This document shows positions 3,457-15,294 of a stretch of 15,336 nucleotides of DNA, one piece after another; the first letter of the stretch is position 1, and the number at the start of each line of letters is the position of its first letter. The DNA comes from a virus. The translations under genes and the position numbers were made by a program. Where the stretch lies: UHGV virus genome UHGV-1739098. The stretch is one strand, 5' to 3'. The notes beneath the pieces were generated by a model. That model had not been told where the DNA came from. It worked only from the letters and a program-made list of their open reading frames with translations, and ran no database searches.

Positions 3457-3753
3457 TCAGAATTGCATATCAATTTGCTTAAAATCCTCGGTGGCGGCCG
3501 GGTATTTTTTCTTTGTGATTTCATCAAGCGCATACTTAAAAGCCCTACTAATCGGACTGATGTCTGATGCCATTCCGAAAGCACACAAGACCGAAGCAAT
3601 AAATCTCCAGTCCGTTCTGCTTATCTTCGATTCATGACAGCCAATCATCTTTGCCAGACCGCGCTGGGTAAGCGTTGACAGGTTGATGAGTAAATCAGTT
3701 TCAGCGCGATCAATTTCTCGCTGTGTTGGCTTGCTGTAACTTGCTTGTGTCAT
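3457..3753 (-). CDS. cII: CII-like transcriptional activator
   Basis: 98 aa. The C-terminal KKKYPAATEDFKQIDMQF resembles lambda CII KKRPAATERSEQIQMEF. Lies immediately downstream of cro, as in lambda. A TTGC-N6-TTGC motif sits in its first codons on the opposite strand. Confidence 0.75.
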   Translation of the reverse strand: MTQASYSKPTQREIDRAETDLLINLSTLTQRGLAKMIGCHESKISRTDWRFIASVLCAFGMASDISPISRAFKYALDEITKKKYPAATEDFKQIDMQF

Positions 3754-3763
3754 TTCTTAATAT
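3731..3763 (+). promoter_or_regulatory. Candidate pRE (CII-activated promoter for repressor establishment)
   Basis: TTGC-tgtaac-TTGC at 3731-3744 is the CII recognition pattern TTGC-N6-TTGC. TAATAT follows at 3758-3763. It lies within and antisense to the 5-prime end of cII and points toward cro and cI, as lambda pRE does. Confidence 0.5.
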
Positions 3764-3791
3764 TTCCAATAGTGAATAGTTAGTTGAAAGG

Positions 3792-3809
3792 TATGCGTGG
3801 AAACGCATA
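3792..3809 (-). terminator. Hairpin between nutR and cII (tR1-like position)
   Basis: 7-bp perfect stem tatgcgt/acgcata with a 4-nt loop. On the minus strand it is followed by CCUUUC, which is only weakly U-rich, so it may be Rho-dependent or a structural element. Confidence 0.3.
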
Positions 3810-3838
3810 TGACCTTAGTTGGTCAGATATCTTGGGGC

Positions 3839-3884
3839 TCGCTTTGTCAGCGACGTAGGACGAATGTCCATTGTGAAAATAGCG
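3839..3884 (-). promoter_or_regulatory. nutR: boxA-like plus boxB hairpin
   Basis: Minus-strand boxB is UCGCUGACAAAGCGA (3853-3839), nearly identical to the nutL boxB. Upstream on the minus strand is CGCTATTTTCACA (3884-3872), resembling lambda boxA CGCTCTTACACA. Confidence 0.55.
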
Positions 3885-3891
3885 GTGTTAC

Positions 3892-4137
3892 TTATGCTGC
3901 CTGATTCGGTTTTGGAAACAGGTGTGGCAAATCGGGGCGAATTTCGTAAGCCTTGATCTGCCCTCCAGTGGCGTTAACGATGGCGGTAACTTTCTCTGGA
4001 GAGACCAACCCGCCTTTCAGCCATTTGTGTACTGCTGGCTGCGTTACACCACACTTGTCGGCAAGGCGCTTTTGGCTACCGACAATTTTCAAGGCTCGTT
4101 GAATTACTAAATTCATGAGCATACCTCTTGTGGTCAT
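3892..4137 (-). CDS. cro: Cro-like HTH repressor (YdaS/DUF1019-like)
   Basis: HTH segment KRLADKCGVTQPAVHKWL and a C-terminal TGGQIKAYEIRPDL motif typical of YdaS-type Cro proteins. Divergent from cI across the operator region. The true start is probably the ATG at 4116 (M-N-L-V-I), 9 nt after AAGAGG. Confidence 0.75.
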   Translation of the reverse strand: MTTRGMLMNLVIQRALKIVGSQKRLADKCGVTQPAVHKWLKGGLVSPEKVTAIVNATGGQIKAYEIRPDLPHLFPKPNQAA

Positions 4138-4149
4138 TAGTTATAACCA

Positions 4150-4215
4150 AAGATAACTCAAGTTATAAAAAATAGCAATAACCTTTGTTATTTTACTTTG
4201 GATAACCGTAGTTAT
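4150..4215. promoter_or_regulatory. OR region: three operators overlapping pR and probably pRM
   Basis: Three 14-bp palindromes ATAAC-N4-GTTAT at 4153-4166, 4178-4191 and 4202-4215, with centres 24-25 bp apart. Minus-strand pR: -35 TTGCTA (4178-4173), 17-bp spacer, -10 TATCTT (4155-4150), overlapping O1 and O2. Confidence 0.6.
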
Positions 4216-4227
4216 AGATTTGTGGGT

Positions 4228-4935
4228 ATGAAAACATTCGCAGAAAGACTAAATGCAGCCATGAGCTCAGCAGGGGTATCACAATCACAGCTTGCTGACA
4301 TGGTTGGAATATCTCAGCCAGCCATACAGAAGATGTCGTCCGGTAAAACAAACGGATCTCGCAAGATGGTTGAATTAGCCAATGCTTTAAAAGTGCGTCC
4401 TGAATGGCTTAGTTCTGGTATTGGTGAAATGAGGGATGGTGCACATGAAGAACCATCCAATGTCCGTGAGTCATCTTTAAAAGCTGTGGTATGGGAAGAC
4501 ATTAAAAGAAACGATGACGAGTTTGTTGCGTTGCCTCTTCTTAACGTTTCGCTTTCAGCTGGAAGCGGTAGCTGCGAGCTAGAGGAATCATCGGAGTTCT
4601 CTTTGGTTTTCAGAAAGCACTATCTGAAAAAGATGGGAGTATCTGAAAGATCAGCCAAGCTAGTTAGGGTTGTAGGGCAAAGCATGGAACCAACCCTTCA
4701 CGATGGCGATGTTGTTGGTGTTAACACGCAAGATACCACAATCAGAGATGGTAAAACCTACGCTATTTGCCAGTCTGATTTGTTACGAGTAAAAACATTA
4801 ATCGCCACCCCTACATCGGTGATAATCAGATCAATAAATCGCGAAGAGTACCCGGATGAAGTAATGGATAGAGATGAATTTCATGAAACCGTAAGGATTA
4901 TTGGCAGAGTATTCTGGTCGTCTCATAGTTGGTAA
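4228..4935 (+). CDS. cI: CI-type repressor with N-terminal HTH and C-terminal S24 (LexA-like) autopeptidase domain
   Basis: HTH region QSQLADMVGISQPAIQKM. S24 motifs VVGQSMEPTLHDGDVV and a later K. The ORF-track start at 4198 is a TTG that sits inside operator O2/O3; the ATG at 4228, just past O3, is more likely. Confidence 0.85.
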   Translation: MKTFAERLNAAMSSAGVSQSQLADMVGISQPAIQKMSSGKTNGSRKMVELANALKVRPEWLSSGIGEMRDGAHEEPSNVRESSLKAVVWEDIKRNDDEFVALPLLNVSLSAGSGSCELEESSEFSLVFRKHYLKKMGVSERSAKLVRVVGQSMEPTLHDGDVVGVNTQDTTIRDGKTYAICQSDLLRVKTLIATPTSVIIRSINREEYPDEVMDRDEFHETVRIIGRVFWSSHSW

Positions 4936-4975: not shown

Positions 4976-5272
4976 ATGGAATTTCTGATAGTTTTTGTTG
5001 TTGTTTTGGTCATCATTCTTTTTGTTTTGCTAAGCATTAGCAAAAAGCTATCTCAAATGATTGAACATAGCTCTAATCGCGCAAAAGAAGAAGAGCATAT
5101 AATTGATATAAAAGAGATTCTCTCTGATATAAAAATCACATTAGATGAAATAAAATACACAACAGATCTAATTGAACAGTATAAAATACCAACCCCAAAC
5201 GAGAGAAAAGCAATAGATCAATATCGTATTGACTTAGAAATCGACGAAATGCTAAGCAAAAGAAAAGACTAA
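4976..5272 (+). CDS. Hypothetical 98-aa membrane protein (N-terminal transmembrane helix plus charged helical tail); moron at the rex-equivalent position
   Basis: GGAGGG Shine-Dalgarno 5 nt before the ATG. N-terminus EFLIVFVVVLVIILFVLLSI. Visibly very AT-rich compared with cI. Followed by a terminator. Confidence 0.6.
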   Translation: MEFLIVFVVVLVIILFVLLSISKKLSQMIEHSSNRAKEEEHIIDIKEILSDIKITLDEIKYTTDLIEQYKIPTPNERKAIDQYRIDLEIDEMLSKRKD

Positions 5273-5277
5273 AAACA

Positions 5278-5304
5278 CCAGGCCTCAGCGCCGGGTTTTC
5301 TTTT
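5278..5304 (+). terminator. Candidate intrinsic terminator ending the cI / 98-aa transcript
   Basis: GC-rich imperfect stem (ccaggcctcagcgccggg) followed by ttttcttttcc. Confidence 0.45.
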
Positions 5305-5469: not shown

Positions 5470-5511
5470 ATAAATTAGGTTATTGACCACACCTATAACC
5501 TAAGTTATCTT
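5470..5511 (+). promoter_or_regulatory. OL operators and pL promoter
   Basis: OL1 ATAACCTAAGTTAT at 5495-5508 and OL2 ATAAATTAGGTTAT at 5470-5483. pL: -35 TTGACC (5483-5488), 17-bp spacer, -10 TATCTT (5506-5511). Same promoter-operator design as pR. Weaker operator-like half-sites lie further upstream (5427-5460). Confidence 0.55.
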
Positions 5512-5579
5512 TAAGCCATCAGCAGGACGCACTACTCACCATGGCGGTGAATATACAACGATTCGAATATGAATCTACG

Positions 5580-5594
5580 GCGCTGACAAAGCGC
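5580..5594 (+). promoter_or_regulatory. nutL boxB hairpin (P22 type)
   Basis: GCGCTGACAAAGCGC, identical to the P22 nutL boxB as I recall it. Lies between pL and N. Confidence 0.7.
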
Positions 5595-5855
5595 AATAAC
5601 CAAAGTGAACTTTGGGGTGTGGTGAAGCCAGCTAGTCACTGGCAAGTGCTTACCTACTGTTGAGCGGTGAAGCGCTCCCAACGCTAGCAATAGCGTGGAC
5701 GAGATGGGGGGCCGCGGGCGATAAGGCCGCCATAACGCGCACGTTGTCGCATGGAAAAATCACTGGGGTGCCGGTTATACCCCTCCGAATGAGACTCAAC
5801 AAGCTGGAGCTAGACTACCAGCCACCACACCACCAAAGTTCATCAGGAGGTCTAT

Positions 5856-6239
5856 ATGACACGCAGAACTCAGTTCAAAGGCAATTCACGTTCTCGTCGT
5901 CGTGAGCGTTTAAAGGCAAAGGCATTAGCTAACGGCGTACTGGCCCGCGAAGAAGCAATAAGTTCAGAAGTATTACACCGCCCTACTCTAAGCAGATCGC
6001 AGATTCAGGCTAAAGGTACTCACGAAACGCCTGAGCGCATAGAAGACGCTAAGCCAATTAAGTTCATAGCACAGGACGTGATCTGGCAACAGAAAGAATA
6101 CAGACGCAATCTGGAGCGAGCGGCCATTGTGTACGCGAATGAGTTTGGACATAAGCAACCAGAAACTGGTGTATGTCTTCCAAACGTAGCCATTTACTCG
6201 GCAGGCTACCGGAAATCAAAACAACTGACAGCAAGATGA
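5856..6239 (+). CDS. N: N-type transcription antiterminator (P22 gene 24-like)
   Basis: Arginine-rich motif GNSRSRRRERLKAKA near the N-terminus. The C-terminal VAIYSAGYRKSKQLTAR resembles the P22 gp24 C-terminus. GGAGG Shine-Dalgarno. First gene downstream of pL and nutL. Confidence 0.8.
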   Translation: MTRRTQFKGNSRSRRRERLKAKALANGVLAREEAISSEVLHRPTLSRSQIQAKGTHETPERIEDAKPIKFIAQDVIWQQKEYRRNLERAAIVYANEFGHKQPETGVCLPNVAIYSAGYRKSKQLTAR

Positions 6240-6298
6240 CTTGTGTTGGTCGCCAGAAAATGAAATTAGGCAGTAAGCTACTGTATGAGGGGTGAGAT

Positions 6299-7155: not shown

Positions 7156-8130
7156 ATGAGTAACGCATTGCAAATAAGCATTATTAAAACCGACGCTGGT
7201 AAATGTTTTATCACTGATTGCACAGCAAAGGACGGTTATCACTACCAGTACCATCAATCTAAAATTGCTGATCTCCTATTTGACGGAGTTAAACCCAAAG
7301 CCAGCTTTCACAAAAACTGGTTTGAAATTGAACATTACCCTGAAAAGGTTGAGAGAATTATCTCTGGTGAAAGAATTAATGTTCGCTACGAGCTTAAAGA
7401 TGCTGAACTTGAGAGTAAAAAATACCCTTTGACACTTAGTTACAATGAGCGTGACGCAGTGGACGAGGATATCAGAGGCTCTCTTTATGAATACAAATAC
7501 GATACTGCACCTGATTACACCTCTCCAGTTGATGTTGAATTCACATTAGTATGTGAGGTTGAAAATTTTCGTGACGCACCAGAATTTAATTACTCTGCAA
7601 TTAGGCAGGTTGAGTTCCGGGAGGAGAGGTACGTTGTAAAAAACATAAACGTAAAACACTCTCTTGTTGACTGCATCATAATTCCTGAGCCTTTGCGGGC
7701 TAACAGCCCTTGTGAAATTTCATCAAAAGAAATGTATGACATTGTACGCCAGCACGTAAAAGATAACATCGACAACAAACTGGCTAGAATAACAAGTGAT
7801 TACGCATTTTGCTTTACCGTTAAAAAAATAATACCGCTCCTTAAGCCTCACACATATTCATATCAGGATATTTTTGCCAGAACCAAGAAGCAAAGAGCAA
7901 AGTTGCACTTTAAGACTGACACGGTGAAGGAAATTGAAATTTTCCAAATGACACATGACCAAGAAAATTACAAAGGTTATACGGCGATTAAAGGGTTCAA
8001 AGCCAATAACGAATGGGAGCTAAAGGAAATGATTGATAACTTCCTTACGACGCTTATGGATACCATTCACGCGCCAATAGAGCAATGCTCATGCTGTGGC
8101 GGTACAGGCTACACGCAAGACATCAAATAG
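7156..8130 (+). CDS. Hypothetical 324-aa protein, AT-rich, insulated by terminators; function unknown
   Basis: Strong GGAGGA Shine-Dalgarno 4-9 nt before the ATG at 7156. The ORF track's upstream extension to 7060 runs through the terminator and is unlikely. Ends with a CSCCGGTGY motif. No recognisable catalytic motif. Confidence 0.6.
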   Translation: MSNALQISIIKTDAGKCFITDCTAKDGYHYQYHQSKIADLLFDGVKPKASFHKNWFEIEHYPEKVERIISGERINVRYELKDAELESKKYPLTLSYNERDAVDEDIRGSLYEYKYDTAPDYTSPVDVEFTLVCEVENFRDAPEFNYSAIRQVEFREERYVVKNINVKHSLVDCIIIPEPLRANSPCEISSKEMYDIVRQHVKDNIDNKLARITSDYAFCFTVKKIIPLLKPHTYSYQDIFARTKKQRAKLHFKTDTVKEIEIFQMTHDQENYKGYTAIKGFKANNEWELKEMIDNFLTTLMDTIHAPIEQCSCCGGTGYTQDIK

Positions 8131-15218: not shown

Positions 15219-15294
15219 TGGTGCCGATAATAGGAGTCGAACCTACGACCTTCGCATTACGAATGCGCTGCTCTACCAACTGAGCTATATCGGC
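15219..15294 (-). tRNA. thrW: tRNA-Thr (anticodon CGU), thrW-like
   Basis: The reverse complement folds as a canonical cloverleaf: acceptor stem GCCGATA/TATCGGC, anticodon loop TTCGTAA (anticodon CGT), T-loop TTCGACT, encoded CCA. Confidence 0.8.

Follow-up and report, generated by a model that had tools for sequence, protein, structure and literature searches.

The closest described counterpart of the element analyzed here is found in phage lambda, whose N leader contains a stem that we take to be an RNase III processing site (rIII), located between NUTL and the N ribosome-binding site. Steege in 1987 and Kameyama in 1991 are said to have found that RNase III cuts this stem, and Wilson, in 1997 and again in 2002, reportedly found that cleavage lifts the repression that N exerts on its own translation via NUTL. 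This N-mediated translational repression in lambda requires a Nus-dependent complex. The N protein of phage H-19B presumably needs fewer Nus factors. We know of no reliable way to predict RNase III cleavage from sequence. Nut sites are composed by definition of boxA, boxB, and boxC (PMC2724277). In rrn operons, the 5′ strand of the leader-trailer helix is boxC, which, according to one proposal, is brought to its distal partner by the Nus complex (PMC10250234). Phage P22, in turn, produces P22B, a stable RNA of 96 nt whose 3′ end lies 16 nt before gene 24 (PMC13397905).

We analyzed a stretch of DNA of 15,336 nt (the window), which is the early region of a mosaic lambdoid prophage, here followed in the pL direction. 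It includes a cro-like gene (3892 to 4137, minus strand) and a cI-like repressor gene (4198 to 4935). A low-GC open reading frame (ORF) of 98 aa (4976 to 5272, plus strand) is located between the repressor and pL; it has a GC content of 25 to 35%, encodes a hydrophobic N terminus, and is followed by a hairpin and a T-run at approximately 5278 to 5300. Exclusion genes are often found at this spot in lambdoid phages. A pL-like sigma-70 promoter (TTGACC, a 17-nt spacer, and TATCTT; 5483 to 5511, plus strand) stands directly upstream of a conserved transcript-start motif, CATCAGCAGGACGCAC (5516 to 5531, plus strand), which is identical in lambda, H-19B, AU5Stx1, and Sf6 and differs by 1 base in Bas106. 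The pL transcript starts near 5518. Downstream, the ORF at 5856 to 6239 (plus strand) encodes a true N-family protein, a 127-aa antiterminator of the H-19B/HK97/933W type that matches PF25694 (4e-15) and phrog_271 (4e-39). Its Shine-Dalgarno sequence, GGAGG (5846 to 5850, plus strand), lies 5 nt before the AUG.

Three further observations concern the N gene and its surroundings. Overlapping the N stop codon, in another frame, positions 6236 to 6295 (plus strand) read MTCVGRQKMKLGSKLLYEG followed by a stop; this stretch, right after the H-19B-type N, is similar to the C terminus of lambda N (GITCSGRQKIKGKSIPLI, likewise followed by a stop) and looks like a recombination vestige of a lambda/21-type N tail. 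In RefSeq, lambda N (NC_001416, 35037 to 35438) is given as 133 aa, with its start placed inside the leader; only 78 nt further downstream comes MDAQTRRRERR..., the sequence that lines up with the beginning of N in related leaders. Finally, the far end of the window carries a tRNA gene (71.8 bits; 15222 to 15294, minus strand).

The nutL boxB, GCGCTGACAAAGCGC (also given as GCGCUGACAAAGCGC; GCGCU-GACAA-AGCGC), occupies 5580 to 5594 on the plus strand. Its nutR partner, UCGCUGACAAAGCGA, is found downstream of cro at 3839 to 3853 on the minus strand; 0.03 occurrences of two such matches were expected by chance. The nutR boxB is preceded by a dyad, GGACAUUCGUCC, and has U-A as its closing pair, versus G-C in nutL. 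No canonical boxA (GCTCTTTAA) is visible in 5550 to 5579. As in H-19B, a dyad is found there instead (GAUUC-GAAUAU-GAAUC; 5560 to 5575, plus strand), which is predicted to form a hairpin upstream of boxB and is identical in H-19B and AU5Stx1.

Between boxB and the N start codon at 5856 runs a leader of 261 nt, in agreement with the preliminary description, which had put the distance at about 260 nt and had called the region GC-rich. The GC content of 5596 to 5855 is indeed 55%, versus 45.7% for the whole window, and 100-nt segments range from 54 to 62% across 5600 to 5800 versus 25 to 47% in the flanks. Folding of this leader, proposed at that time as a check, revealed significant structure (z = -4.18, with 0 of 200 shuffles as good), which is due to a long-range helix rather than to the interior. 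The predicted helix joins 5605 to 5624 with 5823 to 5843 (plus strand, as are all leader features below) through 20 bp with a single bulged A and spans approximately 200 nt. Its 5′ arm consists of an outer segment, GUGAA (5605 to 5609), a core, CUUUGG (5610 to 5615), and a GU-rich inner segment, GGUGUGGUG (5616 to 5624); its 3′ arm consists of the inner segment CACCACACC (5823 to 5831), the bulged A5832, the core CCAAAG (5833 to 5838), and the outer segment UUCAU (5839 to 5843). The helix is present in both the minimum free energy (MFE) and the centroid folds of 5518 to 5875 and of 5596 to 5855, with base-pair probabilities above 0.99, and its halves are the two longest inverted repeats in 5500 to 5900. 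It measures about two helical turns, and only 2 nt separate its base from the Shine-Dalgarno sequence of N. The 5′ strand includes a GU-rich, boxC-like sequence, GGGGUGUGGUG (5614 to 5624), approximately 20 nt after boxB.

A scan of 5500 to 5900 for terminators gave no intrinsic terminator or attenuator; the 3′ arm is followed by CAGGAGG, with no U tract. We also looked for a long-range helix after nutR (3700 to 3900, minus strand), and it was absent there, so that the stem is specific to the N leader. Searches of the window leader against Rfam 15, at the gathering score and at E-values up to 10, returned nothing relevant. Seven further leader types, including those of lambda-, P22-, Sf6-, and Stx-type loci, were searched at the gathering score and gave no match in a leader; Rfam found only tRNA and the cIII thermometer, both in other parts of the loci.

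Comparison with lambda (NC_001416) shows the predicted helix to be a homologue of the lambda N-leader stem. Both follow nutL and have their base next to the Shine-Dalgarno sequence of N; the arm cores (CTTTGGGGTGTG, also given as CUUUGGGGUGUG, and CACACCACCAAAG) are identical, as are the bulged A and the pL start, and the lambda leader folds into the same helix (z = -3.16). In contrast, the interiors are unrelated in sequence (approximately 90 nt in lambda and 198 nt in the window), and the outer 5 bp differ, with GUGAA/UUCAU in the window and GG/CU plus CAG/CUG in lambda. The window also has a nutL of the H-19B type, with a GACAA boxB loop and no canonical boxA, and an N of a subfamily other than that of lambda. 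The leaders of H-19B and of AU5Stx1, a 933W-like Stx phage, are identical to that of the window in nutL, both arms, the Shine-Dalgarno sequence, and N, yet they carry interiors of 84 nt (H-19B) and 121 nt (AU5Stx1) in place of the 217-nt Sf6-type cassette of the window. Judged from these alignments, the window leader is an H-19B-type version of the lambda N-leader RNase III stem equipped with an Sf6-type cassette. The control element is thus of a known kind, and its mosaic composition is new.

The arrangement also resembles that of Escherichia coli rrn, where a GU-rich boxC comes after a nut-like element and supplies the 5′ strand of a long-range helix, and where this leader-trailer helix encloses a long RNA, is cleaved by RNase III, and is kept by covariation (PMC10250234, PMC8632103). 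The rrn helix encloses 16S rRNA and follows the order boxB-boxA-boxC, whereas the leaders studied here enclose a variable cassette of 29 to 217 nt before a protein-coding gene. Nus-mediated delivery of the window arm to its partner would be only an analogy.

The preliminary description had suggested a search for covariation across homologues. Scanning viral contigs with the transcript-start motif yielded 120 loci, from which 82 unique leaders and 43 distinct arm pairs were extracted. We computed covariation on an anchored alignment (A2), using as controls shuffled sequences and alignments in which the partner strand was slid by 1 to 3 columns. Across the 43 distinct leaders, which contain compensatory changes, 82.6% of the cells hold standard pairs, versus 33 to 40% when slid. 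Both sides have changed in 18 of 23 pairs (11 to 14 when slid), and the covariation score of 0.441 compares with 0.15 for shuffled sequences, of which 0 of 500 scored as high, and with 0.08 to 0.14 for slid partners. The inner arms provide clear examples, such as GGGGUGUGGUG / CACCACACC, GGGAUUGGAUG / CAUCCAAUC, GAGUAGCGCG / CGCGUUACUC, and AGAUGGCG / CGCCAUCU, and the outer 5 to 7 bp vary with the type of N (GUGAA/UUCAU, GAGAUGG/CCAUUUC, and GUUGG/CCAAU). Of the 43 leaders, 37 have an A at the bulge position. The helix is maintained by compensatory evolution among lambdoid phages; since it covaries across leaders, the homologues do share a conserved structure.

The sequence enclosed by this helix is an exchangeable cassette. 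In the window, the GC-rich interior (5625 to 5822; 198 nt), which we call type A, is 98 to 99% identical to the interiors of Sf6/HK544-type leaders; by megablast, 5610 to 5838 is 99% identical to Sf6, HK544, HK446, HK633, mEp213, mEp043, and Sf101. In the Sf6/HK544-type phages, however, type A is flanked by a lambda-type nutL and a lambda-type N. Measured from core to core, the enclosed sequences belong to at least 24 unrelated families of 29 to 217 nt, that of the window being 217 nt. The H-19B-type nutL and N of the window are found with three cassettes (84, 121, and 217 nt), lambda-type N is paired with at least nine interior families, and five interior families are each common to two to four types of N. 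The inner arms move with the interior, while the outer arms move with nutL and N.

Type A itself occurs in 19 phage records and in 60 of 5,426 E. coli genomes, all copies being at least 97% identical, and in one further copy, 94% identical, on a viral contig (L053). With all copies at least 94% identical and L053 as the single diverged one, type A is too uniform for covariation within the interior; the changes in L053 are scattered over paired and unpaired positions of the predicted MFE fold of the window interior. A scan of viral contigs with a 14-mer from the interior gave mostly random GC-rich matches. In E. coli P276M (NZ_CP044293, 503215 to 503321), the 3′ half of type A remains together with the 3′ arm and N, joined to a truncated “packaged DNA stabilization protein” pseudogene. 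This partial copy, which arose at a deletion joint of a decayed prophage, yields no information on the leader.

The preliminary description had listed several potential hairpins within the leader. As sequences, such hairpins do exist; one of them, among several in the interior, is GGGGU-gccgguuau-ACCCC at 5764 to 5782. Their stability, however, is no better than that of shuffled sequences: the MFE of 5625 to 5822 is -66.4 kcal/mol, versus -66.5 ± 4.5 kcal/mol for shuffles that preserve dinucleotides (z = 0.02); z is -0.30 for the reverse strand. These local hairpins are thus at chance level, and the relevant structure, the long-range stem, had been overlooked. The interior is not itself the regulator.

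Some other interiors show features of their own. Those of 58 to 62 nt, found in short leaders (L015, L071, L122, L029, and L058) and referred to as the D-family, form a three-way junction whose stems covary, with double changes in 15 of 26 pairs. They share the unpaired conserved motifs GAAWUGCAGC and GCAAC and a hairpin loop, RGAUAAGC. Several other interior families also have loops of the GAUAAG type, and the window interior has one, predicted at 5721 to 5726. The motif is not in Rfam, and the cassettes, like the local hairpin described below, appear to lack Rfam curation. At the ends of two interior types are hairpins similar to a T arm, GGUUCGACUCC and GGUUCAAAUCC (L016, approximately 8010 to 8040; L021, approximately 7250 to 7290), which lie directly 5′ of a 3′ arm ending in CACCACACCACCA and are reminiscent of the 3′ half of a tRNA. 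We rejected a tRNA-like origin of the interiors, as ARAGORN calls no tRNA in the leaders. The prophage anti-sRNA and Pas sRNA families were also discarded as candidates; both map outside the N leader, at the pR′ moron site.

The 5′ arm has a second potential partner close by. Positions 5600 to 5605 (CCAAAG) can pair with the arm core CUUUGG (5610 to 5615) to form a local hairpin, CCAAAG-UGAA-CUUUGG. Because this hairpin would sequester the core, it and the long-range helix cannot form together. This hairpin is predicted in all nascent folds with 3′ ends at 5630, 5700, 5822, and 5832 and is displaced in those ending at 5838 and 5843, once the 3′ core has been made; the long-range helix is favored by approximately 9 kcal/mol over the forced local hairpin. 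Of the 28 leader types, 25 have the same local arrangement, in each case at 5.4% of shuffles or fewer. Variant arm cores are compensated upstream, as in CCGAAG/CUUCGG, CCGAAGC/GCUUCUGG, CCGAAAC/GUUUUGG, and CCAAAC/GUUUGG. In these core-variant leaders, the distal 3′ arm keeps a mismatch, and local pairing is worth -8 to -11 kcal/mol, versus -3 to -6 kcal/mol for distal pairing. The motif-anchored covariation score of the local hairpin is 0.202, versus 0.143 for shuffled sequences (1 of 500 as high) and 0.02 to 0.09 for slid partners, which gives this hairpin moderate formal support. RNAalifold detected no structure in unanchored 5′ segments because their loop lengths differ. During transcription, the local hairpin would form first and would be displaced when the 3′ arm emerges. 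It may act as a transient guard against mispairing of the arm with whichever cassette is present, or it may re-form after cleavage as a protective 3′ hairpin on the nutL fragment.

The preliminary description had thought post-transcriptional control similar to the RNase III-dependent autoregulation of lambda plausible. Homology with the lambda stem supports RNase III-linked control of N in the phage of the window, and we favor a mechanism in which the helix limits N translation and RNase III relieves this limit (probability of roughly 0.7, reasoning from that homology). Following the lambda paradigm, the intact helix would abut the ribosome-binding site and hold nutL, with any bound N/Nus complex, beside it. 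The helix and the nearby complex would keep N translation low. Cleavage of both helix strands by RNase III would then free the Shine-Dalgarno sequence and sever nutL from the N message, so that N synthesis would rise with cellular RNase III activity. The branch of this scheme in which N represses itself may not transfer, because repression in lambda needs a Nus-dependent complex and the nutL of the window has no canonical boxA; by analogy, transfer of lambda N self-repression via nutL to an H-19B-type leader is uncertain.

Other readings of the conserved arms can be weighed against this mechanism. The mosaic joints lie exactly at the conserved cores CTTTGG and CCAAAG, as they would if the arms were nothing but DNA-level recombination linkers at mosaic boundaries, with no function as RNA. 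Linkers of this kind do not require compensatory changes, however, and the two-sided changes in 18 of 23 pairs, across a gap of 200 nt, disfavor this explanation and make it very improbable. We give next to no credence to the notion that the region encodes a small protein, be it the 81-aa ORF that overlaps the N start (5660 to 5905) or a 60-aa “hypothetical protein” of Bas106. Although the ORF is open in the window and a coding sequence is annotated there in one phage record (PQ850599), the region is unannotated in most records. The ORF starts with TTG without a Shine-Dalgarno sequence, matches no Pfam or PHROG family, and has a C terminus set by whichever N gene follows; third codon positions account for only 2 of 10 substitutions in the interior of L053, and L217 carries a 1-nt indel. 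Protein coding by this ORF was rejected on the grounds of reading frame, translation signals, and family membership, and the earlier impression that it is spurious is borne out by these features and by its lack of a coding-type substitution pattern. A third reading retains the RNA helix and dispenses with RNase III: as a purely structural shield, the helix would reduce translation of N or keep Rho from loading on the long untranslated leader. Its base does lie 2 nt from the Shine-Dalgarno sequence, and the GC content of the interiors averages 55%, with no fewer G than C in 22 of 24 families, a composition that disfavors rut sites and is weakly compatible with avoided Rho loading on a long untranslated leader. 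The slight G excess of the interior and its enclosure in structure might, in this weak sense, help the leader escape Rho before N exists. Yet the arms are homologous to the lambda stem, reportedly an RNase III substrate since the work of Steege in 1987; RNase III sites typically have a length of at least 20 bp and a bulge that is conserved; and a shield would not need about two helical turns in every lineage. We consider a shield acting without RNase III unlikely.

Alternatively, the helix could be a release frame, with the cassette excised by RNase III in the manner of rRNA to become a stable, functional noncoding RNA, either acting in trans or bound to a host factor. The exchange of interiors as units together with their inner arms would suit such a role, as would the covarying stems and conserved unpaired motifs of the D-family three-way junction, whose GAUAAG loop is also predicted at 5721 to 5726. 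P22 infection yields an abundant RNA of 96 nt, P22B, that corresponds to an N-leader interior plus the 3′ arm (PMC13397905) and ends in a 3′-arm-type sequence, CGCCAGUACCAAAGCC. P22B differs from the window in belonging to another interior family, and its 5′ end lies inside the interior rather than in the arm, so that processing there is not a simple symmetric RNase III cut. P22B is consistent with leader processing and also with the release of cassettes as RNAs. On the other hand, the window interior folds no better than shuffled sequences, has no Rfam match, and is rare (60 of 5,426 E. coli genomes and 19 phage records), and interiors can be as short as 29 nt, which indicates that a cargo is not required; a functional cassette product is, in our opinion, doubtful. 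P22B and the covarying GAUAAGC three-way-junction family also suggest a broader and similarly speculative model. The nutL-proximal helix would serve as a docking frame for swapped, unrelated cassettes that RNase III excises as stable functional RNAs, and the local hairpin at 5600 to 5615 would be a co-transcriptional switch that sets whether the RNase III substrate forms and thereby links N translation to the assembly of the N complex at nutL. We regard this model as rather improbable and retain RNase III-relieved limitation of N translation as the preferred reading.

How fast early lambdoid development proceeds is determined by the amount of N, which in Stx phages also influences the route to toxin expression. 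RNase III-linked leader control of the lambda type appears to have kept its structure in phages that differ in N and nut specificity, the H-19B/933W type among them, and would therefore be directly testable in those phages. The combination of one helix with many interchangeable interiors constitutes a clean natural experiment. Alongside the leader-trailer helices of rRNA, these leaders may thus help in the study of how distant RNA segments pair behind an antitermination complex.
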